Of a stretch of DNA of 64,000 nucleotides, positions 6,601 to 51,692 are shown piece by piece. The notes beneath the pieces were generated by a model. That model had not been told where the DNA came from, searched no databases, and saw only the letters and a program-made list of their open reading frames with translations. Made by a program: the position numbers and the translations under genes. The stretch's first letter is position 1. Every line of letters begins with the position of its first letter. The stretch is from Eledone cirrhosa (Eukaryota), in contig OZ024743.1 in NCBI GenBank assembly GCA_964016885.1, positions 171,678,001-171,742,000 on the forward strand, read 5' to 3'.

Positions 6601-8960
6601 TCGGAAATCCTGGTCTCGCTGACGGCAATTACATCCATTTCTGGAGACCTGAGGTCATTGAGTAGGTGATTCTGCTTCTAGGGTGACCCCAAGCCACGAA
6701 CATTTAAACATCCTACGCTTAATATGGTCATTTTGGTAGACTAAAGGAGAGATGAAAGGTTTACTTACCTCCCGGGGTCTTGTGGAGGTCGGGAAGTTTG
6801 ACCTCTATGGTTGGTGGGGTTTCCATTGGGAACCTTTTTAGGAACCTACTCGGGCCTTTTAAATTTTGGGCTGCCACGTCTTCGGAAAAGCTTTCCCTAA
6901 TATGTTTATAAGTTTGTATTGGCATCAGCACAGTGTTTGGGGCACTTTGAAGGTGCCAAAAATCTCTCCCTCTTTCTCAATGTCCTTACTTCGTGTTACA
7001 AAGGCCATGAGTTGTTTGTTGGCCTTCCTTAGTAACACGAAGTTGGGTGTGTCTGTTGTTGTTAGTGTCTACGTGTGATTTCTTTTGTTTTGGATGACTT
7101 TTGCTTGTGCCGGTGTTGTTGACGGTTGTAGAGTTTGTGTTGCTGTGGGTGTGTTTTGTGTGCTTGTTGGTGTGTGTGGAGCTGGAATTTTCGTTTTCTT
7201 TTTATGCCTTCTTTTTTCCTTTTTAGGTTTTTGGGGTTTCCCCTCATCTTCACTCGGAGAAGTGAAGGAACTCGTGCCTGGGGACTCTGTGTCAGAGGGG
7301 TGTGGTGTGTGCGTTTTGCTCTGTTTGTATGTGTTTGAAAGAAGGGGGAGGATGGATTTAATTGTCCTTGTTGTTAATGGTGCAGTTTCATTTTCTGTTG
7401 CTGCTAGTGTTGTCCCTCCTCCCGACACCGGTGGTGGCAGCAACGGAGGTTTGCGGCCGCCTGCAGTTTTCAATTGGGAGCAAAAGTCTCTCATGTGTGT
7501 GGCTTGACCACACACGAAACAATGCGGATGTTTGCCCCTCATGATTACCTGGATTTTGTACCCGTCCGGTAGTTTTATGTGGTCCGGTATGTTTTTTCTG
7601 TCTTCAGGTCTGATTTGGAGAAGAATCTCTAAACCAGTCCCGAAACACCTCTCTCTCTTTTTGTAAATCTAACGTCGAGGAGGGCGTCAGGGCTCTCTAC
7701 CGCCACGCATCCCAGGAGTCACCATAAATCAAGTTCTCGCGGAATCCTGGGAACACGGTCCCTTACTGTTCTCATTCCATGTAGGAGGGGTACAAAATGA
7801 TTTGGTCCGTTTTGCAGGGGACCACAGAATGCTTTATAGCAAGGGTCTCAGTTCTGAAAAGCACCAAGCTGCTCCCAAATTGTCTGACCCTTGTTATATG
7901 GTCTATGTCGTCATTATCGATACATTTCAGTGCTGCTTCTACCTGTCCTTCGGAAGTAGTCTTAGCGTTTTGAGATTTGACCGAAATGCATCGATATTTT
8001 AGTACTGTCCTCTTCTTTGCTGCCATTACCTCTTCCAGGACATTTCAATTGGCCCAACCTTTTTCTTCTCTTGTTATAAATGTTTCAGCTTAGGCCAAAC
8101 GTTCTTTTTTCTCTGTAAGGTCGAAATCGTGTAGCGTTTGGCTTTTTGCTACTTTGGCCGCGAAAGTATCCTTTTTGTTGTTGCTGTTTTGCTGTTTTTC
8201 GTTGACTATATTGTTGTTAGCGTTGTCGTCGTTCTTGTTGTTGTTGGTGGTGGTGGTGTTGCTTTTGTTTTTGTTGTCGTTGTTCTTGTTGGTCTTGTTG
8301 CTGTTATCACTGTTACAGTTGGTTATATCTTTGGTGCCGCTGTTATTGTTCTCGTGCAGTTGGTGTAGTTGCTGTTGTTGCTCTTGCTGTTCATGTTCTT
8401 GCTAGTGGTGTTAATTTCGTTGTTGTTTTTGTTTTGCCTTTCATCCTCACGGAGTCGATAAAATAAAGTACCAGTAATGTACTGCGTTATTGCTGGCCTT
8501 GTGCCTAAAGTAGAAACAATTATTTCTTGCGTCTGACTTTTGGTTGTCGCTGTTATTGCTGAGGTTAGTGTTGTCGTTTTTTGTTTAAGGGTATTGTTCT
8601 CACTATTGGTGTTGTTGCTGCAACTGTTCATGTTGCTTGTGGCGGTGTTGCTAAATGTGTTTGTAGTGTAAATCAATGTATTTGCCGCTTGTCTCTTCTC
8701 AACATTTAGGACGCTGTCACACGACGGCAGACATAAAGTGGGGACTCAGCCATGCTTTTTTTTTTTTTCGAGAATTTTATTTTCAGGAAGTTCAAATATT
8801 TGGGCAAAAAGGCCCAAATATTATACAGTCACCCCTCCACAGGGCAAAGACGGAAGTCTTACGACCCTTTTCAAGGTATACAGGAATTATTATAAATGAA
8901 AATAAACAGAAAATTTACCACTTTGCGGATTCTAAAGAGACGTCTACACTGTCTGACAGC
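3700..8960 (-). mobile_element. Near full-length but decayed Tx1-clade LINE (family C)
   Basis: ORF1 remnants 6760-8680 with zinc knuckle CFVCGQATHMRDFC; ORF2 from ~6731 with APE endonuclease (DRFLI, DHKFV, GPGYWKLN) and RT (FKPITLLNTEFKIL); many frameshifts and stops. Confidence 0.85.
8432..8524 (+). mobile_element. 5'-truncated Nin/Deu-domain SINE inserted antisense in Tx1 ORF1
   Basis: gcctttcatcc..gtcgataaaataaagtaccag core; same family as 28506-28697. Confidence 0.8.
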
Positions 8961-9043: not shown

Positions 9044-9044
9044 A

Positions 9045-11450: not shown

Positions 11451-14400
11451 TGTTTTCTTTATTAACCACAAGGGTTGACATAAAGTATAACATTAAGGAC
11501 AGCACAGGACAATACAGGACGGTACAAATGGGCTTTTCTGCGTGTAAAAAAAACAGAGGATGTAATAAAATAACAAAGAAAAATTCCCCAATAGGGGGGA
11601 GACTTCCGTGGGTCACTCATGGAGAAATCCCACAAAAAAATCCACGGTTACCCTGAACGCTAGGGCAAGCGGCTTCTTCCAGGCTTCCTTCTACGATACT
11701 ACAGGCACACGCTCAGGGTAAGCCGCTTCACACGGGCCATTCTTGCCTCACCCACCTTTCAATAAACTGGCTGGGAAAGTAGCACTTCTCTCTCCACCCT
11801 GGGGAAAACTGTAAAATTAATGAGGCGGTCACCGAAGAGGAAAGTGCCTGTCTTCAACCATTTCAGACGTGTCCACCATACGACATCTTTTACCACGTAG
11901 ATAAAAACGGCCTGCCCCTCCTGGTTAACGAATGGCGGCGGGGCAATCTTCACTATGGATTCAGCTTAGAGCCGGATCCGTCCTACACGCGACAGCAGAT
12001 GTTCGACATAAACCCACAAGTCAGCAATGCTCGGACACTGGACGAGTGCGTGCAGGATGGTTTCGTCGCCCTACGCGCATCTTGGACATGCCCGGCTGAC
12101 GGCACTTCCTTGCCTGTAGAGTTTATGCCGCACTGGCAAAGCTCCTCGGTAGCAGTGCCAGGCTAGGAATTTCTGAAAGTTGTCCATAAGCCCCGGACTG
12201 AAGGTTCTCTTAAATAGATTAGCTAGTTGATTTTCATCGACGCCCAGAGTCTCTTCAAGGACGTTGTCGCTGTTTCCCTCCACTAACCCGCTATAGAACG
12301 CCAAGAGGGAGTGTCAACTGATCGCATTGCCCGATAAGTCGTGGGCTGTGAGCGCCTGAAGACATTCCAGTCTCCAAGCGCTCCCTCTCGGTCTTCGCTT
12401 GACCCAGGACTGCCGCTCCATCAAGGAGAGGAGCTGGGGAAACACAGGTCTAGCAAACGGCGACCACACCTGATCACAGTTGGGGAAGAGGTGGAGATGC
12501 CGTAGCCTGAGCGCATGTCTGAGCATCATCAGCCACGTCACGTCCAGCCCTCTGTATAGCGTGTGTTGACAGCAGATGGACCGCCGGACCATCGGAGCAC
12601 GTCCCTTCTGCAAAATGCGAAAGAGCAAACGCTATAGCGCAGTCAGGTGATGCTTAGGAAAAGGTATGGCATCAGGTGGTAGTAGATGACGGATGTGCTG
12701 TACGCATTTGCCACCTCCGCTCGACCTTTCAGAGATAGCTTCCTCTCGGCCCATTTCTGGGTGAGAGAGGCCACCCAGCTCGTCACCGCGTCCCAGTGTT
12801 TGTCCGTCTGGACGTCCGGACTGATCCAGACCCCTGGTTGGACAGCATGGACCTTCCTCTCCAGGTGCCGAGCCACAGTCCCACCGACTTTTCCTGGTTC
12901 AACATTGCTCCTGTCACCACCTCGTATTCTCTCAGAGCTGTGCCGATCACCTCGATGTGTTTGGCATTCGAAACCACTACGGTGACGTCGTCAGCATATG
13001 CTGACACGGTTGTCCCGCATCCCAGTTTATACTGGACGCCTCCCAATGTCCCCAGTTTGTGTAGTAAGGGCTGCAGAGTCAATACGTACAACAGGGACGT
13101 GAGGGGACATCCTTGGTGGACCGAGCATATGACGTTGAACGGTTCCGAAAGGCATTCCTTCACTCTAACCACAGAGCTTATGTTACAGTGTATGGCAGCG
13201 ATCCAGCCTTTGAAGACAGGCCCAAAGCCGGCCGCCCTCAGGACCACCGCCAGCTATTGATGGTCGACACTATCGACAGCTTTCGACTGATCTAAAACGA
13301 TTAAAGCTCCACCCTTGCCAGATTCCCTAGCTATCCTCTCCACGATGTATCGCATGAAATGGAGATTGTCGTGGATGGATCTGTCTGGAATCGTGCATGG
13401 CTTCGCCTCTCCCATCAGTCTAGTACCCCTGAATAGCTGAGCGAATTACCGCTGAAATGCTGCCCACATTTGCTCGGATTCAAGTAACATGCTCTCATCG
13501 TGGTCGTCCAAAGACCGGATCTTGACTTTATTGCCACGGTACGCCCCCGCCACTCGGGCTCATAGAACAGATTTCGTCCCCTCATGTCTGAGAACACGCG
13601 CTCTAATACTGGCAACGCAACCTTGGTGCTTTGCATTGAAGAGTTAGTCGAGAGCCAATCTCGCTGCAAACACAGCGGTTACCATGCCTTTACTAAGCGT
13701 CTTGTCTAATTTACTAACTAGTTCTCTCTCTGTTCTATTTTTCTATATTGTTAACACCTTACTAAACCTAATGGAATCTATTCTAATCGCCCTTTTCAGA
13801 GCGAACCGCGATTTGTTGCTGACGACTGCCTCCGTCAACACCCGCCTACTAGTTCGCTAATCCGGTATTTGTAGGGTTTGCGCACCGTGAGTGACGCGTT
13901 TAGCTTCCAGTACCCGGGTCCTTGTCTAAGAAGCCTTTCTACGTTGACCACACAGATCACAGAGCAGGTTTGCGACGCTTTTAAACTCTCTTCCCTCTCC
14001 GCTAGGCCCACACAGTCCCAGCGTGCATCCAAGATCCCGCCCTGCCTCGCCCTTCGCCCACTAACACTAAGAGCGCGAGGTTCCAAGAAAGGTCTCCAAG
14101 CGCCGGAAGAAGTCAGGCCGTCCTGCTCCTGTCGGGGTGTATTCAGCCACTAGCTTGAAAGTGCACCCTTCTCCACTGGTCACGTCCAGCACCATCAACT
14201 TACCTTTAGGGTCCAGTAACATGGTCCGTATCACGGGGTCCAGGCCTCTCCGCCCCCCCCCCTAAATTTGGGATAGCTTGGAGATGTGTACGAAAATGGG
14301 TGCGAATGTCCGGGTCTCGGTGGTGATGGCAATGGTGGTGGTGGAGGTGTGGCGGTGGTAGTGTTGATGGTGTCGGAGGTTGTAGGGAGGGTCTGTTTAT

Positions 14401-15720
14401 AGCGATGGTTGTAGGTCGTTGACTTCTTTTTTTGTTTTTTTCCCTCCTCATTTTTATGGAGGACGAAGTAAGGGATCTCTTCTTTTTCGCTGCGATGTTT
14501 TTCCAACCTTCAGCATCATCACACTCTCTGTCCGATTTCGTGAGATCGGGAAGGGGCATCCTCTCCATTGGTCTTGGCGCTTTTGGTGGTGGAAATAGTG
14601 TTTTTGTCGTTGGTATCACCGGTACTGTTAGTTTTTCTGCCACTGTGGCCTCAGGCAGCTTTGCCACTCAAGTCACGGGGCACAGCATAGAGATAAGGGG
14701 GTGCGCGTGCACACCTTTGTGAATTTGGGGCAAAGGCCTTGGGCATCTACCTTCGACAACTTGGGCTTCTACCTTCGAAAGTAACGGGTAGATGGCTGCT
14801 GTCGTCCAGGTCGATCACATCGGGGATGGCGTCAATGGTCTCATAGTCTGATTGGATCATTAGCTCCATCCCTAAACCTGACCAGTTTTCTTGTCTCATA
14901 CGCATGACATCTAGGATTGTTGTTGACTCCTCGATGTCAGCGAGGACGGCTGCCATCAGCCAAGCGATCTCCATTGAGTGCGGAACCTGGGTCACTCGGA
15001 CCCTCACGACTCTCTGTCCGCAGTATGTGGGAACCATGAGTATTTCCTCACATTGGAGTGACGTAATGGAGTGTACTCTGCCTTCTTCGGGTGAAGCGAA
15101 AGAAACATCCACGGTGCCATACTTAATTCTTCGGGCTACGTAGATTTTCTGTGCCCAGACGGCATACATAACCCTTTGGACCTGTGACTCTGCCACCCAT
15201 TCCATTCGGCACAATTTGAGTTCAAGTTTACGGTACGGTGACCCTGTGAGGCTGACCCTGCTTTTCTTTGACAAAAATCCTGGCCTGTCACATCTCCATG
15301 TCACTGATGCGTACTCTTTCCACACTTTTAGCAGCCTTCACGAATGATACCACTTAGGAGGCTCATGCCTTCTGTTTGGGGCTCGTCATTTCTGCTTCTT
15401 TTGTTGTTGTTGTTGGTGGTGGTCTTGTTAGTTTTTTTCTTCTGTGTTGCTGCTGTTACTGTTGTTGTTTGGCTATTTGCTACAGCTGCAGTTGAATTCG
15501 ACCGGGTGACGCGTTGTTTCCTTGAGCTTTATTTCACGTTAATTTGCAAAAATGATCTGTACCTGTAATTTAAAGGGTCAGTCCCCTTATGCTGAATCTC
15601 TTTGAGCACTACGATAAGGTTCCACGTGTCTGTGGAATGCTCAATCACTTTCGCGTTACTTTGACGATCAGGCTTTTCTGTTGATTAGGACATAGTCGCA
15701 GTTTCTGAGGTAGGTCTAAT
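11451..15720 (-). mobile_element. Decayed, internally deleted Tx1-clade LINE (family D, (ATT)n-tailed)
   Basis: ORF1 remnant 14747-15325 (PTYCGQR..FEGRSPSC); ORF2 fragments GPGYWKLN, QGCPLTSLLY, AYADD; 3'UTR very similar to 1211-1453; 5' boundary uncertain. Confidence 0.85.
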
Positions 15721-16009
15721 AACAATATATATTTCACGATCAAAGGACCGTTAAGTATTTGGGGATTTCTCGATCTATTGCATTATTTTGTAAAAAAAAA
15801 AAAAAGAAATCCCACAAAACTATCATAATACCAGACACAAGATGCTTAATCCCTCTAACTATAAATAACACCCAGATACACCTACAAGAGAGAGAGAGAA
15901 GTAGAGTTTATGTGAATATGTGAATGTGTATGATAGAAAAGGAGATAATTGATCTATTTAACAGGAGAAGGGACGCAAGTGAGAATGAGAGACAAATGAG
16001 TGAAAGGAG

Positions 16010-31318: not shown

Positions 31319-31554
31319 CTCAATCTAGCTGTCGCCTGTTCTACAGTGTGGATGTAATTCACTTCGCGCAGAAGTTTTGTTCAAATTTATTGCGGAAATT
31401 TTGTGAGTTCAAATTTAATTTTGATACAATTGTGTAGCTTGACCCCCCGTCTGAACTGTCAGGCGGTGGGTCAGCTCATCTTTACCCCTCCTAGAGGTGA
31501 AAAACCTGTTTTAAAAAATTTTGTGGCAAAAAAAATTTCAATCGTCTAACAGAA

Positions 31555-33447
31555 ATGTTAAACGCAGCGAACGAAAATAGTGGTGGGGGGACAGCGGTAA
31601 GAGTTGTAAGCTCGCACGCTTTAGTTCCCCCTTCCTTCCCAACTAACGTCATAGAGAAGGAAGGAAAAATTAAAATAAAAACAGACGAATCTGCGGAGAA
31701 TAAAAATGACGAAAACACAAATCTGGACATGGATTCCAACAACGAAAAAAAAAAATTTGAAAAATTGCATGACAATACTAATAACACAAACAAAGACACA
31801 ACAAACACAAAAATAACATTTGAAAATAACACCATAACAGAAAGCAAAGCAGACGACAAGATTTCATTTGCACAGAAAACAAAGAAATCTTTGACTTATA
31901 TACCGGAAAATATTTCAGATGTGGCACGACGAATCACAGACGCCAAACAATACATAAGTGAAGGAGAGAATGGTATTTTATCGGTAAAAATGCCTCAAGA
32001 ATTCACCAAAGACATTGAAATCCGAACGGTCAAGTTTCGGACCATCAACAACAGTACAAAAAAACCTGAACAGCCTTCTCAAGCAGATATCAAAACAGTA
32101 CTCACAGAAGTACTTAATGAAACCACTTTCATAAGAAAAGACAGACTGTATGGAAGCCTAGCAATTATCATGAAGAACGAATCGGCGGCAAAAAAATGTG
32201 CTTTGTCACCGATTCGTTCGAAAAATTTTACCTTTTATCCATCTTATATGGGTAAAAGAACTCAACGCATATGGCTGGATGCAATGATGCCAGATGTGGA
32301 CTACTGCTGGCTCATAGCTGGCTTCATCGATCCAGTGAATGACAACGTGATTTCCATTGGGAAAACCACAGGCAATGCGTTCAGTGGAACAGGTATAGAG
32401 CTGGTAGTGCAAATGAAGCCTGAACGCATCGCCCAAATACCCGACAGAATCCTATTAGAGGACCACGGGTATATAAACATTAGCGTGGAGGGGAGAAGGC
32501 CGTCCTGCCATATCTGTGCAGGCAGAGGGCACCTGAAGGCCGCTTGTCCCCAACTCAACAAAAAGAAAACCCTGCTACCAACACCAGCTCCACCACCACA
32601 ACAGATAAACAAACAACAAAACTCAGTCCCACCCAACCCGTCCCTCAGTAAAACCACACCACCACCACAACACAAACAGTCACAACACATTACCCCAAAA
32701 CACAATACAGGCTCACCCAACCTCTCACTCAATAAAACAACACAACCACCGCAGACACAACACACAACACAGTCTAACATAGTGACATCCATCTCCCCCA
32801 CAAAGAAAACCAACACGGAAACATTACCAGCAAACATACCTCTTCCCTCCAACACTGAAGATAACCCAACGAATTCGGAGGAAGAAACGGAGTCCTTCAG
32901 ACAGATTAAAAGGAAAAAAAGAAAACATGTGCAAAACACACAAGGCCAAACAACCCCCACCCAAATCTCAACACAATCCAACAAAACAGAAAACACCCCT
33001 CCAGCAACAAACAAAACCAAACCTGCCCCTCCCCTCTTCGAAACACTCACACCATCCGAAAAAAAGACATTACACTATACTTACATCAACAGAAACAATA
33101 ATAAATTAAATTAACTCATATACAATAATCCTTCGGTACAAACCGAAGGTGTAAACGTTGTTTCTTCAGAAAACTACCCACATTTAAAATTAATAAAGAT
33201 CCCAATGAACCTCTACCAAAAACTAAAAAAGGATGTTAAGGAGGACGTAGGACGACCCTCTGTCAAACCCATAAACCGCGTCCTACTAAAAAGCTTTCCC
33301 CCTCCCCTTCCCCTCCCCAACACAACTCCAAACACCCCAACCCCACCACACACTGACGACCCCACACCACCACAAGACACCCCTTCACCCAACACCCCCG
33401 ACCCCATGGAAGTCGTGCAACCCGAACCCCGGGAAGCGGAAAGGTAG
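31555..33447 (+). pseudogene. Tx1 ORF1 (gag-like; CCHC knuckle, P/T-rich linker) with one premature TAA at 33112-33114
   Basis: CHICAGRGHLKAAC; ORF 33205-33447 is in the same frame and matches the family B C-terminus. Confidence 0.85.
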
Positions 33448-33480
33448 GTCTCTACACTCTCCTTTGGCTCTGCCGCCCAC

Positions 33481-36400
33481 ATGGATGTGTTAAGAGTAGG
33501 ATGTTTGAATGCACGTGGCCTGGGCTCAACTTGGAAGCAAGCAAAGCTTCTAAATGACCTCAGGTCATGTAGTATAAATGTAATGGTTATCTGTGAGACT
33601 CGAACCAGCGTCGTGCGGCAGCTGGCCCCCACCTTCGATGACTTTGAGGTGCATGCATCTCTCTGTCAACCTGGAGGTGGGGATGGGGTTGTCGTACTGC
33701 TGCAAAAACACCTGGGTCTTGCCGTACAGGTTGTGCACTCGGACCCGGAGGGTCGTTTGTTGGTGCTAGACGTTGGCAGTAGTGAAAGTGCGGCCTTGAG
33801 ACTGGTCGCCGTCTACTCCCCTTTCGGAGCTGAACGGCCCGACTTCTTCCAGCGTTTGGAGACTTTTCTGGGAACGTCGCCTTCCTTGCTTCTAGCGGGG
33901 GATTGGAATGACATCCTAGATGCACGTTGGGACTATGCAGGAGCATGTCCTAATATACGGGGGTGTAACAGCCTCAAGGTGTTACTCGACCGTTTTAACT
34001 TGGTCGATAGATATCGACTAGATTTTCCAACTGTGTCTACCTGGACTTGGAGAAACCACAGTGGTCAATCTAGATCGTACTTAGATAGATTCTTAGTTAG
34101 AAGTAAGGATAGGGACATATTAAGCTGTCCAGAAATGCGCACGGTTGGCTACACGGATCACAAATTAGTGACCTGCGTAGTCAATCTCGAGAAAACACAT
34201 AAACAGGGTCCCGGTTACTGGAAACTTAATTTGTCTTTACCGGCAAGAGAGACTTACAGAAACCAGATTAGCAGATTAGTTAAGGAGAGGTTGACAGGTG
34301 CAATCGTCAACAACCGATGGTGGGCATCTCTCAAAAGAGAGATTAGAACAGAATCAATAAGTTATAGCAAGATGTTAGCTGCCGATAGGAATAGAAACGA
34401 GAAAGAATTAACAGGTAAATTAGAAGAGGCAATCAAGAGCGAAGATGTGGCCAGAGTGCTGGCATCGAGGACGGCCTTGAACCAGTTTTTCGATGCAAAG
34501 CACGAAGGCTGCGTCATTCGAAGTAAAATACGTGCTCTAGGTAATGAGGGGGCCAAAGCCGTTGGCTGGGCCCGCGTGACAGAAGCTAAGAGTGGAAATC
34601 GATCCACCATCCGGTCGTTGCAAGACGAAGATGGACGGGTGATCCGGGAGCCTAAGCAGATGTGCGAGGCCTTTCAAAGGCACTTTGCCCGATTGTTCGG
34701 GGGAGGCGAGGGTCCGGGCGGGGCGTGGATTTCGGTCCATACCTCGACGGCCTGCCGCGTCTCTCGAGCGAAGAGGCAGAGTCCTGCGAGGGACCAATCT
34801 CGGCTGATGAGATCGGAGATGCGCTGAGCCAATGCAGCAGACGCAAATCTCCAGGTCTCGATGGTATACCTTACGAACTTTATTTAACAATGCTGGTCTT
34901 CTTCTCCGAACCCCTCGAAGCGGTCTACTGCAATTGGCAGCAGAACGGGAGAATTCCTTGTTCTGTAGCCAAGGGCGTAGTCACGCTGGTGAGGAAGGAC
35001 GAGAACAAGGGAGATAGTATAAATAATTTTCGGCCCATAACCCTGCTAAACACAGAGTTAAAGATTTTGGCCAAGGTGTTAGCAAAGAGGTTGGCGCTTG
35101 TCGTGGGTGGCCTGGTGGGAGATGCGCAGACATGTGCTATCCCATCTAGGTCCATTCACGATAACCTCCACCTCATGCGATACATCATAGAGAGGGTTGG
35201 CAACAAACCCGGATCAACTTGGATAAGTCTAAGGCCTTCGATAGGGTCGACCATGGTTACCTGGATGCGGTGCTAGCGGCGGCTGGGTTCGGTCCTGTTT
35301 TCAGAGGCTGGATCACTGCCTTACATAGCAACCACATCTGTTCTAGGATCAAGGTGAACGGCTACCTTTCGAAGCCGTTCGAAATCACACGATCCATTCG
35401 ACAGGGGTGCCCTCTCTCCTCCCTTCTGTACGTATTGACTCTCGAGCCTTTACTGAGGAAGTTGGAGTTGTTGCAGGGTATCCCCCTGGAACCAGGATTG
35501 AGAAAAGCGGTGTCGGCCTACGCCGATGACGTAACAGTAATGGTATCAACCGACTCGGAGATCGAGGCGATCGGTACCTTACTGGAGGAGTACGAAAGGT
35601 TGTCAGGAGCGAAACTGAACAGGGAAAAAATCCATCGGGCTGCAACTCGGAACGTGGAGAGGCAGACCGATGCCTCCTGACGGTGTCGTCGGACACTGGA
35701 CGGAGGGCCCGGTAAAGTTGCTTGGGGTCTGGTTTGGACCGGACCTCCAGGTGGAAAAGAACTGGAACGAGGTTACGAACAAGGTGTTTGCACTAACCCA
35801 GAAATGGGCCAAGTGTAAGCTGTCCCTAAAAGGCCGGGTGGAGGTGGCGAACATTTACATAGCGTCCGTCACTTACTACCGCCTGACTGTCGTGCCTTGC
35901 CCTAAGGAAACACTCACCACCATGGAACGCATGCTCTTCCAATTTCTTTGGAAGAAGCGCGCTCCTATGGTGAGAAGATCCATCTGCTGCCAACAACCTT
36001 CGAAAGGAGGGCTGGGGATGCCGTGGTTGATGATGCGTAGGAACGCATTAAGGCTACGGCACCTACATGTATTCCTCACTGGTCAACCGGTGTGGGCTCC
36101 GTTCGTGAAACGAGCCTTTCCGAGACTCGTCTCGCTCACCGAGCTACAGTCCTGGGTCAAGCAAAGATCCGGAAAACTGGGAGACTGGCACACTGAGTGT
36201 GCTCAGGCGCTCAGGGCTCTCTGGCAAGCGGGCCAGGCCATCGGTGGAGAATCCACCTCATCATTCTATAGAGGGATGGTGGCTAGCAGGGGCGATGACA
36301 CCCTTGGAGAGTCGCTGGACATGGAAGAAGACGAACTGGCCAGCCTGTTCGGTAGGACTTTCGGCCCAGGACCAATGGACAACTTCCAGAAGTCACTGGC

Positions 36401-36885
36401 CTGGCACTGCTACCGGGGGGCTCTACCCGTTCGAGAGAGGCTCTACAGACACGGGCGCAAAAAAGATTTGCCCTAGATGTGTGCGTCACGAAGAAACCGT
36501 TGCGCACGCATTGGTGCAATGTCCGGGCGTGGCTGATCTGTGGGGCTACGCCGAACGACTGCTGTCGCGGGTGGCGCCGATTAAATTGACCGCCGAGTCC
36601 GTGATGACAATCAAACCGCCTCCCCTCTTCACAAAGGAAGCAAAGGCGGTTTTTCTGTGCGTAATAGCCATGTTGAAAGAGGTTGTTTGGTGGACACGAT
36701 TGAAAGGTCTGAGGTCAGGCAACTTCCTCTCTGGCCATAGTCTGGTCTACTTCTTCCGATATCACTTCGGAAGAAGGATAAGAATGGAGAGAGAGGTGCT
36801 TGGCCACAGGCAGTTTTATGAAAGGTGGGTGATAGTGGCGAGAATGGCTCGTGTAAATGGGCCTTCTCTGTATACCATCCTGTAG
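33481..36885 (+). pseudogene. Tx1 ORF2 (APE endonuclease, RT, CCHC), about four frameshifts/deletions
   Basis: LNARGL, GDWN, SYLDRF, TDHKLV, KSPGLDG, FRPITLLN, KAFD, RQGCPLS, AYADD, CPRC..HALVQC. Confidence 0.92.
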
Positions 36886-37358
36886 GTAAAGAAGTAAAGG
36901 AGAGGGGAGCACCTTCTCCATGTGCTCCCCGGGCAAAGGATTGCACACTTTTTCGGGGGGGGGGGGGTGCAACCCCCATCACGTCCCCTCCCTTTTGAGG
37001 TTATTTTCGATTATTTTCATGTTACACCCTTTTTACTCGATTGTATGTAAATGTAAATTCCCCCTTTGTATTTGTCCCTTCTTTTTATGCCTTTATGGTA
37101 AATAAAGAAATATATCTATCTATCTATCTCTCTCTCTATCAGTCGTATGTCACTTCGCGGAGAAGTTTCCGTTAATTTATGTAAGAAAAAAACGTGAGTT
37201 TTTAGTTAAATTTTATATCATTGTGTAACTTGACCACCCGTCTGGACCTTCAGCTGGTGGGTCAACTCATTTTCGCCCCTTCAGGGGCGGAATATCCATT
37301 TAAAAAATGTTCCTCCATCGAATCTTGGAAAAAAATATTGTAAAATTTTGATTACGTT

Positions 37359-39430
37359 ATGAACGCTGCGTCCAACGATAATGGTGGTGGAGAGGCGCTA
37401 AGACTACAAAGCTCGCAGTCAACAACGTCTTCTTCACTAGATACTATAGAGATGGAAAGACAAAATGAAAATAAATAAACGAATTCATATTCAAACAACA
37501 CAAATGACACCAAACAATTCAATGACAACAAAAATAACAGCAAAACCAATAATTGTTTCTACTTTAGGCACAAGGCCAGCAATTACCCAGTGTATTACTG
37601 GTACTTTATTTTATCGACCCTGTAAGGATGAAAGGCAAAGTCAACCTCGGCGGGATTTGAACTCAGATCGTAAAGGGACGTAACTATGCTGGAAAAAAAC
37701 CAATAATGATGATAAAAGCAACAATGATAACAACAACAAAGAAAAAAATAAAGACAACGCCAATAACACCAGCATCAAAGACAACAACAACACCAAGGAA
37801 AATACGGATGATACCAACATCGGTGACAACAAGAATAACAACAACAATAACAACAATAATGACAACACCACCAATACGGATTCCACAAAGAAACCAAAAA
37901 TCTCCTTTGCAGAGAAAGTTCAAAAGAAAGAACAATTGATATATCTCGACATAACAAATGCTGAACACCTTTTAAAGGACGCTAAGAGATATGTCACCTT
38001 CGAAAAAAATGGTGCTTTCAGCATCAATTCTCCGGTAGAAATTCGCAAGGAAACTGCTCTCAAAACGATAGTTTTTAGGACAGTTTCCAATTCTACCCGA
38101 AAACCAGCCCAATTATCACAGAAAGAAATTGACCTGATTTTCAAAAATTCAATGAATGATATTTCATTCATTCAAAGAAGCAAACTCTTTGGGAGTATTT
38201 CGGTACTCATGAAGAATCAATTGACGGCCCAAAATTACTCTGTGTCGCCAATTGTATCCAACCTGTACACCTTTTTCCCTACATACATGGGAAAAAGGAC
38301 ACAAAAGATCAGAATCACAAGTGTCACACCAAAGGTGAACATATGGTGGATACTGTGCGGCTTCATCAATTTTGATGAAGACAGAATACTGTCAGTAGGA
38401 AAGTCCCCCAGAGATGTATTCAATTGGGACTAGCATTGAAGTTCTGGTGCAAATGAGCCCAGAGCGAATAGCTATGATCCCACAGCGTGTACTCCTGGAC
38501 GGACTCACCTACATAAACCTTTCGGTTGAGGGTAGGCGGCCTTCATGTTACCATTGCTTTAGCAGGGGTCATCTGAGGGCTTCCTGTCCTAAACTAATGA
38601 ACCAAAAAAAGGCTCTTCTGCCGACACCCATCAAAACAACACAACCACCAACACCACCACAACAACAACAACACCAACACACAAAAATAACCACAACAAA
38701 CACAGTCCCACCCAACCCCACTCCACCTAAAACCACTGCAAAATCACATAGAGACACAACAGCTCCCCAAGACATACCCCTCCCCAATCACACAGACGAT
38801 ACAACAGATGAGGCTATCTCGCCATCACCCAGTGAAGACGAGGGAGAACCCCATCGCTCGAAAAGAAAGAAAAGACATCACAAAAGCAAAAAACCAGCAA
38901 ACACTACCACAAACATACAACCACCAACACAAACAACAAAAATATCACAAACAAAACCCCCACATTATGAAAACAAAATACCTACAACAAAACGAAAGCA
39001 CACACAAGAACTACAGACAAAAACAAACACAACACAAGAAAATTACACTTACACTTACATAAACACTGAAAACAAAACACTAATGGAGACCATCACGAAC
39101 GACCCTTCGGTTTTCACCGAAGGGAAAACTTTCGCCCACTCTATTAAAAATAGCAAAAAACTGAACCTAAAACTGATTAGGGTCCCTATACAAACTTATA
39201 GGTCCCTAAAAGAAACATTTGAGAAGGATGTGGGGAATTCCTGCGTGAAACCACTCAACCGCGTCCTTCTCAAATGCCTCCCCACCCCAGACACCCCCAC
39301 CCCACCAGACCCCACCCCACCAAACATCTGCATCCCCACCCCGCCGGAAACCACCACCCATCCAGACAATCCCTCCAACACCCCCATGGAAATCGTGCGG
39401 CCTGGTCCCCAGGAGGCGAAGGGTGAGTGA
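37359..39430 (+). pseudogene. Tx1 family B ORF1, disrupted by a SINE and a frameshift
   Basis: MNAASNDNGGG start similar to family A; PTYMGKRTQ, VEGRRPSCYHCFSRGHLRASC. Confidence 0.85.
37548..37692 (-). mobile_element. Nin-domain SINE, antisense in ORF1, with 12-bp TSD
   Basis: AAAACCAATAAT at 37542-37553 and 37696-37707. Confidence 0.85.
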
Positions 39431-39463
39431 TCTCTTTTCCTCTTTTAACTTTTCAGCACCAAC

Positions 39464-42400
39464 ATGGCCAATATAAGAGTTGGATGTGTGAACGTACGCG
39501 GCCTGGGGATGCCCTGGAAACAGGGCAAACTCTTAAACAACCTCAGGTCGCATGGTATGGATGTGGTAGCCATTTGCGAGTCCAGGATCCACGGCGAGCG
39601 ACAGCTGGCCCCCATCTTCGATGACTTTGAGATCTACGCATCTCTCTGTCAACCGGGGGGAGGGGGCGGAGTTGCCGTTTTGCTGCGGAAATACCTGGGC
39701 CTCGTAACACAGACAGTACATCTGGACCCGGGGGGTCGACTGGTGGTCCTAGACGTTGACGGTAGTGAAGGTGGAGCCTTCAGGCTGGTGGCCGCATATG
39801 CCCCATCCGGGACACCGCGGCCAGACTTCTTCAAACGTCTAGAGACTTTTCTGGGAACGTCCCGCTCCTTGCTTTTAGTGGGGGACTGGAATGGAATCCT
39901 AGATGCACGTTGGGACTATGTGGGAGCATGTCCCGATAAAGGGGGGTGTAACAGTCTCAAACAGTTAATCGACCGATTTGACCTGGCCGATAGATATCGA
40001 CTAGATTTTCCGACTGCGCCAATGTGGACGTGGAGTAATCGTAGCGGAACATCTAGGTCGTACCTAGATAGGGTTCTAGTTAGGAATAAGGATAGGGACA
40101 TGTTAAGCTGTCCACAAATGTTCATGGTTGCCTATTCAGATCACAAACTAGTGACCTGCATGGCCAACCTTGATAGAACCCATAGACAAGGACCCGGCTA
40201 CTGGAAGCTGAACTTGTCGTTACCGACAAGCAAAGCCTACAGTAGACGGATTAGCAATTTAGTTAAACAGCACTTGACAGGGGCCATTGTCAACAACAGA
40301 TGGTGGTACTCTCTCAAGAGGGCAGTTAGATTAGACTCGATAGTTTTTAGTAAAGAATTAGCGTTAGATAGAAATAGAACCAAGAAGGAACTGGTAGATA
40401 AAGTAGAAGAGGCAATTAGAAGTGGCAACGTAGCCAGCGTGCTAGCAACGAGAACGGCCTTGGACCAGTTCTTCGACGCAAAGCACGAGGGCTGCGTTGT
40501 CAGAAGCAAAATACGTGCTCTGGGAAACGAGGGAGCCAAAGCTGTTAGCTGGGCCCGAGTGACGGAGGCAAAAAGTGGCAACAAGTCCACGATTCGGTCT
40601 TTGAAGGACCAAAACGGACGCGTGATACGTGAGCCGAAGCAGATGTGTGCGGCTTTTCAGCGGCACTTTGCTCGGCTGTTCGGGGGGAGCGGCGCGCCGG
40701 GAGAGGCGATGGATTTCGGTCCATACCTCGACGGCCTACCGTGACTCTCGGACAGCGAGGCAAAGTTCTGCGAAAAGCCGATTTCAGCCACTGAGATAGG
40801 GGACGCGCTGAGCCAATGCGGCAAACGCAAATCTCCAGGTCTCGACGGTCTACCCTTCGAATTTTACGTAGCAATGCCGGACTTATTCTCCGGTCTCCTG
40901 GAAGCGGTCTACTGCAACCGGCAACAGAACGGGAGAATTCCCAGTTCTGTAACCGGGGGCGTGGTCACACTAATCAGGAAGGACGAGAATAAGGGGGATG
41001 ACATAGGCAACTTCCGGTCCATAACTCTGCTAAACACAGAGTTACAGATTTTGGCCAAGGTGTTGGCAAAGAGGCTGGTGCTTGTCGTCGAGAACCTGGT
41101 GGGAGAAGCACAGACATGCGCAATCCCGACCAGGTACACGATAACCTCCACCTCATGCGATACATCATAGAGAGGGTAGGGTGTAAACCCGGCTTCGGTG
41201 GGGCCCTGATCAACTTGGATCAGTCTAAGGCTTTCGATAGGGTTGACCATCGTTACCTGGATGCGTTGCTCGAGGCGGCAGGCTTCGGACCCGTGTTCAG
41301 GGGCTGGATTGCTGCAATGCACAACAGCAACATCTGCTCAAGGGTCAAGGTGAACGGCTACCTCTCGGAGCCGTTCCATATTACGCGATCCATTCGACAG
41401 GGATGCCCTCTCTCCTCCCTTCTGTACGTACTGACTCTGAGCCACTACTGCGGAAGCTGGAGCTATTGCAGGGCATCCCTCTGGAACCGGGACTGCGGAA
41501 AGCGGCGTCGGCCTACGCCGACGACGTGACAGTAATGGTGTCGAGCGCCTCGCAAATCGAGGAAGTCGGCACCTTACTAAAGGAATACGAAAGTCTCACA
41601 GGAGCGAAGCTGAACCGGGACAAGTCCATCGGTTTGCAACTCGGATCGTGGAGAGTCAGACCGATGCCTTCCGATGGCGTCGTCGGACGCTGGACGGAAG
41701 GACCGGTAAAGCTGCTCGGGGTCTGGTTTGGTCCAGGTGGAGAAGAACTGGAACGAAGTGACGGCCAAGGTGTTTGCACTCACCCAGAAGTGGGCCGAGT
41801 GCAAACTATCCTTGAAAGGTCGAGCGGAGGTGGCGAACACTTTTATAGCGTCCGCCATCTACTACCGCTTGACCGTCGTGCCTTGTCCAGCCAAAACGCT
41901 CGCCAAAATGGAGCGCGCGCTCTTCCGATTCCTTTGGAAGAGGCGGGCTCCTTTGGTGAGAAGATCCATCTGCTGCCAACACCCTTCTAACGGAGGGCTG
42001 AGGATGCCGTGGTAGACGATGCGCAAACACGCGCTCAGGCTGCGGCATCTCTACGTATTCCTCACCGGACAACCGGTGTGGGCCCCGTTCGTGAGGCGAG
42101 CCTTCCCACGACTCGTCTCGCTGACCCAGCTGCAGTCCTGGGTCAAGCAAAGACCGAGGAAAATGGGCGACTGGCACATCGAATGTGCTCAGGCGCTCAC
42201 AGCCCTCTGGCAGGCGGACCCGGCGATCAGTGGAGACTCCACTTCGTCATTCTGTAGAGGGTTGGTCCGCTGCAAGTGCGACGACGCGCTCGGTGAAACT
42301 CTAGGCGTAGAGGAAGATGAATGGCCAGTCTGTTTGGTAGGACCTTCCGCCCGAGACCGATGGACAACTTCCAAAAGTCCCTGGCCTGGCAGTGCTACCG

Positions 42401-42887
42401 AGGAGCTCTACCAGTTCGAGACAAGCTCTACAGACATGGGCGCCCGGGCAGGGACCCTGCAAAAAAGATCTGTCCGAGGTGCGTGCGAGACGAAGAAACC
42501 GTCGCGCACGCATTCATACACTGCCCGGGCGTCACTGACCTGTGGGGCTATGTAGAACGACTATTGTCGCTGGTGGGACCAATCCAGTTGACCACCGAGT
42601 CCATTGTCATGATCAAACCGCCAACCTCCTTCAAAAACGAAGGAGTGGCGGTTTTCCTTTGTGTGATAGCTATGGCGAAAGAGGTTGTATGGTGGACAAG
42701 GTTGAAAGGGCTGAGGTCAGACACCTTTCTCTCCGGCCAACAACTGATTCTTTTTTTCAAATACCACTTTGGAAGAAGAATCAGGATGGAGAGAGAGGTG
42801 CTGTACCCTAGCAAGTTTTATGAAAGGTGGGTGAAAGTGGCGAGAATGGCCCGAGTGAATGGGCCTTCTGTCTATATCAGCCTGTAG
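39464..42887 (+). pseudogene. Tx1 family B ORF2 (APE-RT-CCHC), stops and frameshifts
   Basis: [35 protein letters not shown]. Confidence 0.92.
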
Positions 42888-43219: not shown

Positions 43220-44992
43220 TATCTCTCTACCAGACGTGTGTAACTTCGCGGAGAAGTTTCCATTATTTTATGTAAGAAAAAACGTGATTTTTCAGTTAAA
43301 TTTTATATTATTGTGTAACTTGACCCCCCGCCTGGACCTTCAGATGGTGGGTCAACTCATTTTCGCCCCTACAGGGGCGAAATATTCGTTTGAAAAATGT
43401 TTTCTCCATCGAATTTAAAAAAGAAAATATCGTAAGAAGTTTGATTAGGTTATGAACGCTGCGTTCAACGATAATGGTGGTGGAGAGTCGGTAAGACTAC
43501 ATAGCTCGCAGTCAACATCGTCTTCTTCCCTAGATACTATGGAGATGGAAGAATAACAACAACAATAACAACAATAATGACAACACCACCAACACGGATA
43601 ATTCCACAAAGAAACCAAAAATATCATTTGCACAGACAGTTAAAAAAAGGAGGAACTGACATATCTCGACATAACAAATGCCAAACAACTTTTAAAGGAC
43701 GCTAGGAGATATGTCACTTTCGAAAAAAATGGTGCTTTCAGCATCAATTCTCCGGTAGAAATTCACAAGGAAACTGCTCTCAAAACGATAGTTTTTAGGA
43801 CAGTTTCCAATTCTACCCGAAAATCAGTCCAATTGTCACAGAAATAAATTGAACTGATTTTCAAAAATTCAATGAATGATATTGCATTCATTCAAAGAAG
43901 CAAACTCTTTGGGAGTATTTCGGTACTCATGAAGGATCAATTGACGGCCCAAAATTACTCTGTGTCGCCAATTGTATCCAACCTGTATACCTTTTTCCCT
44001 ACATACATGGGAAAAAGGACACAAAAGATTAAAATCACGAGTGTCACACCAACGTTGAACATATGGTGGATACTGTGCGGCTTCATCAATTTTGATGAAG
44101 ACAGAATACTGTCAGTAGGAAAGTTCCCAGAGATGTATTCAATGGGACCAGTATTGAAGTTCTGGTGCAAATGAGCCCAGAGCGAATAGCTATGATCCCT
44201 CAACGTGTACTCCTGGACGGACTCACCTACATAAACTTTTCGGTTGAGGGTAGGCGGCCTTCATGTTACCACTGCTTTAGCAGGGGTCACCTGAGGGCTT
44301 CCTGTCCTAAATTAATGAGTAAAAAAAAGGCTCTTCTGCCGACACCCATCAAAACAAACCAACCACCAACACCACCACCACAACAACAACACCAACGCAC
44401 AAAAATAACCACAACAAACACAGTCCCACCCAATCCCACTCCATCTAAAACCACTGCAAAATCACATACAGACACAACAGCACCCCAAGACATACCCCTC
44501 CCCAATCACACAGATGATACAACAGATGAGGCTATCTCGCCATCACCCAGTGAAGACGAGGGAGAACCCCATCGCCCGAAAAGAAAGAAAAGACATCACA
44601 AAAGCAAAAAACCAGCAAACACTACCACAAACATACAACCACCAACACAAACAACAACAACATCACAAAAAAAATCCGCCTCCTGAAAACAAAATACCTA
44701 CAACAAAACGAAAGCACACACAAGAACTACAGACAAAAACAAACACAACACAAGAAAATTACACTTACACTTACATAAACACTGAAAACAAAACACTAAT
44801 GGAGACCATCACGAACAACCCTTCGGTGAAAACCGAAGGGAAAACTTTCGCCTACTCTATTAAAAATAACAAAAAACTGAACCTAAAACTGATTAGGGTC
44901 CCTATACAAACTTATAGGTCCCTAAAAGAAACATTTGAAAAGGATGTGGGGAATTCCTGCGTGAAACCACTTAACCGCGTCCTTCTCAAATG
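43220..44992 (+). mobile_element. Tx1 family B 5' part (5'UTR + ORF1), 3' part missing
   Basis: Collinear with 37135-39276, with a deletion spanning the SINE site; breaks off after VKPLNRVLLKC. Confidence 0.88.
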
Positions 44993-47439: not shown

Positions 47440-50400
47440 ATGCCTAGAAAACGTTCCAGATCATTATATGGAAAGTCATCTTCAGAGGCTAAGAGAAAGA
47501 AAACACAGCGATCTGAAGAAAGTGAAGAAGTTCGGCATGCCCGTCTAGCTGCTAACAGAGCCCAAACAGCTTTAGCACGAGCACACCGTTTGGATGAAAG
47601 GGAACAAAGGACTGCTGCTACACGAGAACAATAAATTAAGGAACAGCAGCAAATCAGACGAAATGCTAATCAAGCACATCGTTCTACTGCTCGTGGAGGA
47701 GAACAAGCCACAAGTAAAATGAACTGCTGATGGGTGCTTTTTCTTATGACCCCCCAAAAGGACTACAGCAGTAATCCTCAAATCAACATTGGGAAAATGA
47801 ACAAATGCTGCCAGTATTGTGGTGCCAAGAAGTGGGCAGCAGAAACACCAAGTCTATGCTGCTCAAAAGGAAAAGTGGGCCTTAAAACAATACAAGAACC
47901 TCCTGAATATCTGAAGAATCTGCTCCTTCAGCATACACCAGAAGCACGACACTTCAATAAATACATCATAAAATATAATTCTGCTTTTTAAATGACATCT
48001 TTTGGGGCTGACAGGAATGTGACTGACTTTAGATTCTGTACGACTTATAACAGCACGTGTACGTCAGTGTATTTAAATATGCACTGGAGAATATGAACAA
48101 CACCAGAGATCGTAAAATAATCATTAGGGAAGACAAACGCCCAGCTTCAGAAAATTAACGCAGATTCGATGCACCTGCCGCTGATGAAGCTGCAATCATA
48201 ATGGTTGATGAACAGCATGAACGATGTGACATTATTTGGGAAAAACGAAGTGGACATTTGGAGCGAATTTGTGAAACTCATAGAGCCTATGTTTCACTCC
48301 AATACCTGCTCATCTTTTGGAATGGTCAATATGGATATCATTTTCAACTACGGCATATCAGTTCAGGAATGGGACAAGAAACTGGCCGATCAATCAGCTG
48401 CAAATAATTCTATGCTTATCATTTCATGGTACGTGACCACTTCAACCAAGTTCTGCGATTCAAAGAAGTAACCAGCCAGTTCATGGTGGACATGTATGCC
48501 AAAATTAAAACAGAAATATTGGGTTTTCTGCGAAGGAATCAAACTAAGTTGAGGGCAGATAACTACATCCACCTTAGAGATGCCATCAATTCTAATGTTG
48601 ACCCAAGAAATATTGGCCAGCCAGTCATACTGCCATCAAGCTTCACGGGAGGACCACGTTACATGCATGAACGTACGCAAGATGCAATGGCCTATGTCAG
48701 AAAATTTGGTCGGCCAGATCTCTTCATTACATTTACATGCAATTCAAACTGGTCAGAAATATCAAATGAATTATTTCAAAATCAAAACCCAAAGGATCGA
48801 CATGACCTCATTGCTCGGGTTTTCCATGAAAAGTAAAAAAAAACTCATTTGCCCCCTAAAAGAAGGAAGAATCCCTGGTGAGCTTAGTGCTTGGATGACC
48901 ACTATTGAGTGGCAGAAGAGAGGTCTTCCTCACTCTCACACACTAATCTGGTGCAAGGAGAAGATAAGACCAGATGATGTTGATAAGATCATTTTAGCAG
49001 AGTTGCCTGATAAAGGTGTTGATCCAGAGCTCTTAGAAACCATCAAGTCCAAATTAATTCATGATGCATGTGGAGTCATCAATCCAGCCTAACCATGCAT
49101 GAAAAATAAAAAATGCAGGAAACATTATCCTAGAGATTTTATTCGGGAAACTTTGACTGACAATAATGGATCCCCCCTTTATCGTAGGCGTAAACCAGAA
49201 CATGGAGGCAATACTGCAAGCCTAACAGTTCGAGGAGAGGAGCTGGCCATAAACAATCAGAGGGTCGTCCTACACAATAAATTGTGTAAACTTTTAAAAG
49301 CTCATATCAATGTTGAGTATTGCAGCTCCGTCAAGGCAATCCTATATGTCACAAAATATATCAACAAGGGCAGTGACATGGCTACCTTTATTATTGACAA
49401 AGAACTCAATAATGGTGGGCTGGATGAGGTCAAACTGTATCAAACAGGTCGATACATCTCCAGCAATGAAGCTATCTGGAGAATCTTTGGGTTTGATATA
49501 CACAAACGCCACCCGACAGTGATCAACCTCGCAGTCCATCTGGAAAATGGACAGAGAGTGTACTTCACTAAGATCACTGCTCATCAGTTGGCACAAGCAT
49601 CACATGACACTACACTAACTCCTTTCTTTAAACTCTGCCAGAATGATGATTTTTCTCGATCCCACCTATATGCTGAAGTCCCAGCATACTACACCTGGAC
49701 CAATTGCAAGACTTGGAATCGAAGAAAGCAGGGTCATTTAGTGGAAGGTCATGAAGTCAAGTCAAGTGATGCTATTGGGTGTGCTTACAATGTCCATCCC
49801 AACAACAGAGAGTGTTTTTATTTACGGCTACTTCTGCATACCGTTCAAGCACCAACGTCATTTGAGGATCTTAGCTGCTTCAGAGGAAGGGAGTGCACAA
49901 CACCAAGAAGCATGTAAACAGCATGGTCTCCTGCCTGACAATGGACACTAGAAGAAGTGCCTAGAAGAAGCAGCAATCACTCAAGTAGCCAGTTAAATAA
50001 GACAATTATTTGCTATTATGCTCACAGCTTGTGGAATTGATGAAGTTCATCTACTCAGGCACGAGTACAAAAACAATATGTCGGACGACTATCTACACCT
50101 AGCCCGAAGACATCATGGCAATATGTATATGGAATATACCCTCAGGATTTACAATCAAGCTCTCTGTGACCTGTCCCATCGAGTTCTGGCAATGAATAGC
50201 ACATTAGCTAACTGAGGGATGCCAGATTCAGATGAACAAATGGATGTAGCACAATACATTTTTCAGGAGACAAACTACGATATTCAAGCATTGCGTAAGT
50301 TTGTGGATGAAAATGGACCTCGATTGATGGATGATCAGAAATACGCCTACCACAACATCATTGAAAACATTCAAAATGACAGGGGAGGACTTTTCTTCAT

Positions 50401-51257
50401 CGATGCTCCTGCTTGCACAACAAGACATACCTCATAAGCCTCCTGCTTGCAAATGTTCGCCATAAGCAGCATATTGCTCTTCTGAATGCAAGTGCATTGC
50501 AGCAACACTTCTGGATGGTGGAAGAACTGCACACTCCATGTTTAAGCTGCCCATAGATCTCACATGGCATGAACAATCTTTTTGCAACAAGAAGAACTCA
50601 CCCAAGGGCAAGCTTCTGCAAACATACAAGATGATAATTTGGGATGAAGCTACTATGAGCCATAAAGGAGCAATTGACGCTTTGGACCGGACGATAAGGG
50701 ATCTGAGAGAAAATAGTTGCATAATGGGAGGAGTGACAATGGTTCTTGCCTGTGATTTCAGACAAACTCTGCCTGTAATTATTCGAGGGACTCCAGCTGA
50801 TCAGGTCAATGCCTGTCTGAAAACATCCTATCTCTGGCCCCACTTTCAGCTGCTGAACCTTACATCCAACATGCAAGTGCACTTAACTGGTGACGAAGGT
50901 GTCAGTGACTTTGCCATCCAACTACTTAAATTGGGAAATGGACTTCTTGAAAATGACCATATTCAGTTGTCATTTGGTGGTGACAATTGTTTCATTCCCA
51001 GAATACATCTGAAGCTAACTGTTTTGCCATTTGAATATCAAAGACTTCAATTTCCGATCAGGCTCAGTTTTGCCATGACCATTAATAAATCTCAAGGGCA
51101 ATCATTGAAAGTCGTTGGGTTAAATCTGGCAGATCCTGTCTTTTCACACGGTCAACTCTATGTTGGCACATCAAGGGTTGGGAACCCTGATTGTCTCTTC
51201 ATCGTGACACCACAGGGCAAAACCAAGTATGTTATTTATCGAGAGGCTTTGGAATGA
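47440..51257 (+). pseudogene. Helitron Rep (HUH) - PIF1 helicase pseudogene
   Basis: CQYC..CC, GRPDLFITFTCN, IEWQKRGLPHSH, YVTKYINKG, IIWDEATM, DFRQTLP, QFPIRLSFAMTINKSQGQSL. Confidence 0.92.
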
Positions 51258-51692
51258 CAATACACACAGATCCTAATTCCTTAGTCATGTAGTTTGGATG
51301 ACCAGAAATACGCCTACCACAACATCATCAAGGACATTCAAAAGCAAGACATTCCTCATAAACCTCCTGCTTGCAAAAGTTCTCCAAAAGCAATATATTG
51401 ACCTTGCTGTGGCTTCAAGTGGCATTGCAACAACACGTCTGGATGGAAGAAGAACTGCACACTCCATGTTTAAGCTGCCCATAGATCTCACACGGCATGA
51501 ACAATCTTTTTGCAACATCAAGAAGAACTCACCCAAGGGCAAGCATCTGCAAAGATGCAGATCCTAATTCCTTAATCATGTAGTTTGCAAGGAATTCTGA
51601 AGCCGCAAATTTACTGCATGGTGTTACTTTGGAAGAATATGCAAGCATTCCCGGGTACCTCTGCTATATAAAGTAGTATAAGTGAGGACTTT

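Follow-up and report, generated by a model that had tools for sequence, protein, structure and literature searches.

A splice-donor-like motif at the ORF1 stop of Tx1-type LINEs in Eledone cirrhosa and in a distant family

In a 64,000-nucleotide (nt) stretch of Eledone cirrhosa DNA (OZ024743.1:171,678,001–171,742,000, forward strand; hereafter the window, within which all positions are given), three families of L1/Tx1-type long interspersed nuclear elements (LINEs), here called A, B, and C, carry a splice-donor-like motif at the stop codon of their first open reading frame (ORF1), and the same motif stands at this place in a distant family, M, found outside the window. The motif, its position, its conservation across distant families, and a candidate acceptor in the 3′ untranslated region (UTR) of one family are directly seen. 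We consider it probable that the motif is under selection as a U1 site, whatever its exact role. The result is the donor itself; a tiny intron formed between it and an AG in front of ORF2 is likely not real.

The window is repeat-rich animal DNA. A head-to-tail run of these LINEs occupies 29.7–46.1 kb in the order B fragment, A, B, second B copy (B′), A fragment, with (TATC)n between them; copies of C and of a fourth family, D, lie on the minus strand, with a D-like fragment at 1–1.5 kb. A, A′, B, and the B fragment terminate in (TATC)n, D and D′ in (ATT)n, and C and M in neither, tail and target being indistinguishable in these repeats. Every window copy of these LINEs is decayed, and A and B, whose endonucleases are 70% identical, are not independent of each other. 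The ORF1 frames of A, B, and C were fixed by homology of their C-terminal domain. The junctions and flanking frames are as follows.

37359..39430, plus strand: family B ORF1, with RRM-like core, CCHC knuckle, and C-terminal domain; interrupted by a short interspersed repeat at 37524–37695, which we take to be octopus SINE-like, and by a frameshift near 38420
39420..39428, plus strand: family B donor-like site AGG/GTGAGT (GT at 39423), whose final T begins the ORF1 stop
39428..39430, plus strand: family B ORF1 stop TGA, in the ORF1 frame
39431..39456, plus strand: family B pyrimidine tract with CAG at its end, which resembles an acceptor but could also be a U-rich element or one arm of a hairpin
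39464..42887, plus strand: family B ORF2, with APE endonuclease, reverse transcriptase (RT), and zf-RVT; where protein P0001 covers it, the frame has 4 frameshifts and 2 stops
31555..33447, plus strand: family A ORF1, with one internal stop at 33112–33114
33441..33449, plus strand: family A donor-like site AAG/GTAGGT (GT at 33444), containing the ORF1 stop TAG (33445–33447)
33448..33480, plus strand: family A pyrimidine-rich spacer, with no AG; ORF2 ATG at 33481
33481..36885, plus strand: family A ORF2, with 4 frameshifts in the P0001-covered part
6763..6771, minus strand: family C donor-like site GAG/GTAAGT (GT at 6768), running into the ORF1 stop TAA (6763–6761)
6741..6760, minus strand: family C pyrimidine tract ending in TAG; ORF2 ATG at 6731

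A preliminary description of the window had reported these junction motifs and their positions, and all were as claimed on re-reading. Its statement that the donor overlaps the ORF1 stop holds in each family, the TAG lying within the donor in A and a T being shared in B and C. Families B and C have the donor in phase 1 (GGT RAG stop), family A in phase 2. From the donor GT to the end of the AG, the distance is 34 nt in B (ORF2 ATG at 39464) and 28 nt in C (TAG end at 6741). The spacers of the three families are 72–79% pyrimidine; that of A reads CTCTCCTTTGG and that of C CTCTCCTTTAG at the same place, with a one-base difference at the AG. Without any removal, ORF1 and ORF2 share a frame in A and in B, and ORF2 is at −1 in C. 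A single TAG (33445–33447) parts the in-frame ORF1 and ORF2 of A, so that readthrough would fuse both; B has two in-frame stops. An Rfam search at E up to 1 returned 60 matches, all under the gathering score and none at the junctions or 5′ UTRs.

The junction donor is the top-scoring sense-strand GT of its element in all three families (1/296 in A, 1/285 in B, 1/320 in C), as scored with an approximate matrix of human type. In simulations, the chance of such a donor at a stop was 0.0006–0.004 per element. As an empirical control, stops ending frames of 60 or more codons had a donor in 13 of 658 cases, six of these being the junctions themselves (7 of the ~652 others). If only the amino acids Gly-Lys or Gly-Glu mattered, GGT and RAG codons in both B and C would have a probability of 0.0056.

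Conservation beyond the window was examined by scanning GTDB contigs with a three-protein ORF2 alignment, which yielded 40 loci; an earlier scan of genomes with P0001 gave no loci, and a plasmid search and a first ORF1 word search found nothing. Thirty-eight of the loci (L001–L037 and L040, CAXXMW01 contigs) are tandem arrays of intact elements in one metagenome-assembled genome (MAG) labelled as a bacterium, and are clearly animal-type DNA inside GTDB. The CAXXMW01 and L039 arrays, both in bacterial MAG bins, are made of intact LINEs placed head to tail, with ORF2 and 3′ UTR in common and 5′ UTR and ORF1 swapped; in form, these long arrays resemble telomeric retrotransposons.

Family M accounts for 37 of the 40 loci; its endonuclease is 39–41% identical to those of A and B, and its ORF1 is homologous at 1e-9. 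At its junction, the ORF1 stop TAA is followed by G/GTAAGT (that is, AAG/GTAAGT one base past the stop), 7 nt, and the ATG. The donor is present in 55/55 distinct copies on 15 contigs (one copy with an extra A), is the best-scoring donor of 14 of the 15 subfamily representatives and the second best of the remaining one, and is followed by a base that varies three ways. The simulated chance of this donor is 0.0003. Since it lies past the ORF1 stop, protein constraint cannot explain it; together with the codon choice in B and C, the untranslated M motif makes amino-acid constraint alone a poor fit. In total, a strong donor is found in four of the six families with junction DNA (one of the three outside the window; L038 has no junction). 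The earlier suggestion that the donor binds U1 thus likely holds for a real U1 site, as the donor is conserved far beyond the three window copies.

A G/GT RAG T donor in phase 1 predicts that the ORF1 protein ends in Gly-Lys or Gly-Glu. The conserved ORF1 C-terminal domain (~39050–39280 in the window; also in P0025, P0035, P0041, L005, and L001) closes with a D-V-G motif 34–67 residues before the stop, and its window copies gave no Pfam match. Among 28 ORF1 search matches, 12 were fetched as ORF1-like, the 16 others (mostly zinc-knuckle repeats) not being examined as ORF1. Left out of the count of C-termini were nine partial ORF1 proteins that stop short of the terminal domain (P0026, P0027, P0030, P0031, P0034, P0036, P0039, P0040, and P0045), the chimeric P0048, and P0049, which has no terminal domain. 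All three outside proteins that reach the terminal domain have G-K within their last 2–8 residues (P0025, GK; P0041, GKS; P0035, from O. sinensis LOC118765946, GKKWKQN; chance ~0.01–0.04 each), and the K-W near the P0035 end could hide an ORF2 ATG in the −1 frame. Those ORF1 relatives that carry a name come from Octopus sinensis, and the ESM Atlas clusters are mostly from Mollusca.

The amount of ORF1 protein that a LINE requires greatly exceeds that of ORF2 protein, a demand known to be answered by inefficient reinitiation on a single bicistronic RNA. The reading we favour, with somewhat less than even confidence, is that the donor at the ORF1 stop is an alternative one giving an ORF1-only mRNA, with the unspliced RNA serving as ORF2 message and template. 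U1 would bind the conserved donor, which would be spliced to a distant downstream acceptor, removing ORF2; the unspliced RNA would yield ORF2 by reinitiation and template new copies, and the purpose would be an excess of ORF1 protein. With the junction within a few bases of the ORF1 stop, the short mRNA should escape nonsense-mediated decay. The U1 binding, the splicing, the partner acceptor, and the purpose are what we infer from sequence.

Candidate partner sites are present. In family M, another strong donor lies 15 nt past the ORF2 stop (45/45 copies; in L005, in the region of 8749), followed ~33–40 nt on by a U-rich tract and TAG, a unit shaped like the ORF1 junction in the window. Its 3′ UTR holds a pyrimidine tract and TAG ~240 nt beyond this second donor (45/47 anchor matches), upstream of two poly(A) signals, and the TAG is invariant in 15/15 aligned representatives. 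The best donor of L001 (~4830) lies 40 nt past the ORF2 stop, again with a U-rich tract and AG ~33–40 nt on. If the 50-nt rule of nonsense-mediated decay applies in molluscs, these donors within 50 nt of a stop in M and L001 fit real splicing arranged to avoid such decay. D, D′, and C each have a good 3′-UTR acceptor (scores 6.0–7.0), at non-homologous places. A further candidate partner lies one element further along the array, where the 5′ UTR has a strong acceptor-like site; the pyrimidines of this site may be explained by a conserved hairpin: in A, B, and B′ this region forms two predicted hairpins (region z −2.3 to −4.8; no Rfam match), the second holding the YAG. One donor-like site within ORF2, AAG/GTGGGT, is the only such site common to A, B, and C, and is also kept in D, M, and L001; because it needs Arg as AGG (21–27% of Arg codons), its conservation may exceed protein constraint. 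These sites are located as follows.

37230..37292, plus strand: family B 5′-UTR double hairpin, holding an acceptor-like pyrimidine tract and CAG (37284)
~31441–31502 (A, TAG 31494) and 43320–43382 (B′, CAG 43374), plus strand: homologues of the double hairpin
42824..42832, plus strand: donor-like AAG/GTGGGT near the ORF2 end of B (GT at 42827), coding R-W-V
36825, 30958, and 45768, plus strand, and 3651 and 11755, minus strand: further AAG/GTGGGT sites

Several observations weigh against splicing to a distant acceptor or against selection on the donor. Families A, B, C, and D have no conserved 3′-UTR acceptor in common, and in A and B no good one is present; the sole acceptor common to A, B, and C within ORF2 (39878) is weak (2.3–4.3) and absent from D, M, and L001. 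Processed copies, for which the preliminary description had proposed to search, did not appear: six predicted junctions gave 0 matches in the 38 MAG-contig loci. The M copies are 91–97% or more identical and count as one lineage, within which seven invariant bases have a chance of ~0.07; read on past the stop in the ORF1 frame, they would still encode G-K, and the M donor is possibly a vestige of a longer ORF1. The G-K ends of the outside proteins are known from protein alone, the donor DNA behind them not having been seen. Two of the six families with junction DNA have no strong donor, L001 scoring −1.8 and L039 (26–28% identity) 2.2, the latter with the geometry of the other junctions. In the other Tx1-type elements, for which the earlier description had proposed to test conservation, a strong donor is kept in M but not in L001 or L039.

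Two interrupted copies in the window were considered as processed copies and rejected, since their breakpoints do not lie at the donor.

11452..15800, minus strand: family D copy, in which a deletion near 14260 removed the ORF1–ORF2 junction, leaving the donor unscorable
43225..44992, plus strand: B′, cut upstream of the junction and not at the donor

A more elaborate, retrovirus-like form of alternative splicing, which we regard as doubtful, would apply to a Tx1-like branch in marine invertebrates: donors after each ORF stop would compete for one 3′-UTR acceptor, giving ORF1-only, two-ORF, and unspliced RNAs, of which only the unspliced, intron-retaining RNA would be copied into the genome. 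If true, this would be an exception to the rule by which the RNA that a LINE copies is the one from which its ORF2 was translated.

U1 may instead bind without splicing, either shielding the long RNA from early 3′-end formation or retaining it in the nucleus and so limiting ORF2 output. We think this unlikely, but it would account for a donor that is conserved where the acceptor is not, for the several M subfamilies with a 5′-UTR AAA/GTAAGT and a weak or no acceptor, and for the lack of spliced copies in the MAG-contig loci. A precedent is the U1 site of the Arabidopsis element EVD, which, in the part of the report drawn on here, also represses premature termination (PMC5580714). In the LINEs, there is little in ORF2 to suppress: AATAAA/ATTAAA occurs 0 times in 16/16 MAG-contig units and in B, once in A, and twice in C, although only ~0.6–1.3 are expected. 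The conserved acceptor in M also speaks against U1 binding alone.

The YAG before ORF2 in B and C could be a real acceptor, either for an upstream donor, giving an ORF2-only mRNA, or for a micro-intron of 28–34 nt; the branch point of this acceptor would overlap the donor, making the two uses mutually exclusive. Among sense AG sites it ranks 2/379 in B and 1/387 in C, 7 and 9 nt before the ATG; A is one base from C at the AG, M repeats a similar unit of donor, U-tract, and TAG past ORF2, and human L1 provides the precedent of SpORF2 (PMC2896524, in the text available). We nevertheless hold paired sites to be quite unlikely. The acceptor is present in two of six families, with none in A and none in 16/16 representative units of M and L001 (best score ≤1.4); M has no pyrimidine tract before ORF2, the upstream 5′-UTR donors in the window are weak (0.6–3.3), and the chance of an AG after such a tract is ~0.28. 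An ORF2-only mRNA would thus be at most lineage-specific, and of the separate ORF1-only and ORF2-only mRNAs once proposed, the former gains a candidate distal acceptor in M and the latter lacks a general acceptor.

A GT...AG arrangement shared by all families, as expected of a spliceosomal micro-intron, was not found: B and C show it, A and M do not. Fusion of ORF1 to ORF2 by excision of the short segment was rejected, because removal leaves B and C out of frame, and frameshift decay (~4 per 2.7 kb) is too rare to excuse both; the preliminary description had likewise judged simple fusion unsupported. It had also called 24–34 nt short for an intron, and 28 and 34 nt do lie below the shortest introns typical of animals (50–90 nt in the available text of PMC13644364).

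In the window copies, the pyrimidine tract likely opens a long intron, as its U-rich start, and does not close one of 28–34 nt. Such a U-rich start would be a TIA-1-type enhancer, and it would account for the tract whether or not an AG follows.

A translation signal might mimic a donor, with stops in several frames and a purine/pyrimidine hairpin at the ORF1 stop aiding termination and reinitiation at ORF2. Two of the frames of GTRAGTRA contain stops, folding predicts a hairpin around the ORF1 stop in each of A, B, and C, and the ORF1-frame stop overlaps the ORF2 ATG in four families (C, M, L001, and L039), comparable with the coupling described for SART1-type elements in the accessible part of PMC5972666. 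This overlap suggests that reinitiation is still the route to ORF2. As an explanation of the donor itself, however, a translation signal is distinctly improbable: the hairpin z-scores (−1.5, 0.1, −0.5) are not significant, so that a strong junction hairpin was rejected, M is without the pyrimidine arm, and both the exonic AG/G and the second donor past ORF2, where there is nothing to reinitiate, are left unexplained.

Chance with shared descent, that is, a G-K ending or lucky motif inherited without selection on splicing, has in its favour that a donor of this kind lies near ~1% of ordinary stops, that two families lack it, and that the ORF2-internal site is also conserved, partly through amino acids, but is very improbable because motif, position, and phase are kept at ~40% protein identity, a divergence at which silent sites should no longer agree, and because of the codon choice (P 0.0056). 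Spliced-leader trans-splicing, of which we know no report in cephalopods, was set aside, as it needs no donor.

The known system that alternative splicing at the ORF1 stop would most resemble is the Gag-only spliced RNA of the Arabidopsis Ty1/Copia element EVD, the shGAG system (Oberlin et al. 2017, PMC5580714; this and the sources below are drawn on in excerpt). As in EVD, a conserved U1-type donor is found at the border of structural and catalytic genes; a short structural-only RNA beside a long unspliced genomic RNA, and a second, splicing-independent role of U1, would be further likenesses, which for the LINEs are proposed. EVD, however, is a long-terminal-repeat element with one polyprotein, whose Gag stop arises through splicing that is coupled to termination close by (PMC5580714), whereas the ORF1 of the LINEs brings its own stop codon, no poly(A) signal is close, and the intron would span all of ORF2. 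Membership in the Copia shGAG-type system was rejected, given the ORF1 stop and an ORF2 nearly free of AATAAA/ATTAAA; the two would work alike at most.

Human L1 also yields RNA made with host splice sites, including a spliced ORF2-only RNA, SpORF2 (PMC2896524), so the claim that ORF1-stop splice sites would differ from the reinitiation known for L1 was overstated as a contrast. An acceptor upstream of ORF2 of the SpORF2 type would match B and C only, with 5′-UTR donors as weak as given above. Splicing in human L1 (SpORF2, SpIREs) removes 5′-UTR or ORF1 sequence, and the spliced copies are called dead ends in the passages available (PMC2896524, PMC5860796); in the present LINEs, what deeply diverged families conserve is a donor at the end of ORF1, and the MAG-contig loci contained no spliced copy. 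The short spacer or stop-start overlap before ORF2 is like the termination-reinitiation of SART1 and L1 (PMC5972666), which is likely still the route to ORF2 on unspliced RNA and does not account for the donor. In TART, introns lie in antisense RNA (PMC1636488).

The elements share with the Tx1 group of the L1 clade an APE-RT-zinc ORF2, a CCHC ORF1, and copies abutting microsatellites, and the portions of the group's descriptions consulted mention no junction splice signal (PMC5203782, PMC3747384). Window ORF2 pieces match PF03372, PF00078, and PF13966, giving the APE, RT, and C-terminal zinc domains of the L1 clade, and the relative P0004 matches human L1 ORF2p at 4.5e-72 vs R2 at 1.9e-25. 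The ORF1 CX2CX4HX4C knuckle was seen directly; window ORF1 pieces gave no Pfam match, and ESM Atlas leads were zf-CCHC and ZCCHC3 RNA-binding clusters (0.88–0.91). Our tree was built from our own set of sequences, without a named Tx1 reference, and is poorly resolved at depth. The literature searched, in which subscription papers, Repbase Reports, and supplements were barely covered and most entries were judged by their listing, gave no account of such an ORF1-stop donor in Tx1 or L1 elements. In an O. vulgaris source, the accessible text tabulates 13 recently active L1-Tx1 or similar families and mentions splicing 0 times (PMC13282606).

If the donor is selected, some LINEs would have reached the Copia and retrovirus solution of a structural-protein-only RNA independently, and these would then have to use the unspliced RNA preferentially as template. 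Thousands of copies with a strong donor would also be a source of exons for the host, as the annotated host protein P0048 (O. sinensis LOC115225349 isoform X3) hints: within its last 180 residues lies a Tx1-type ORF1 piece that shares 70% identity with P0035 over 158 residues, and this host-ORF1 chimera is likely a case of exonisation.

The window holds other mobile elements. An open RT frame of 795 codons at 8957–11344 (plus), between (AAT)n runs, belongs to another LINE, presumably RTE-like. ORFs at 54855–56387 (plus) and 23914–24768 (minus), which we take to be Penelope/Naiad-like RT and GIY-YIG-like frames (no Pfam match), adjoin long AT-rich inverted repeats at 16.9–20.6, 21.4–26.0, and 52.8–54.6 kb. 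Upstream of the minus-strand ORF lies a hammerhead-like sequence (26410–26481, minus; Rfam HH9, E 0.075, below the gathering score) with a visible CTGATGA...GAAAC core. Remnants of a Helitron Rep and PIF1 helicase occupy 48400–51300 (plus).

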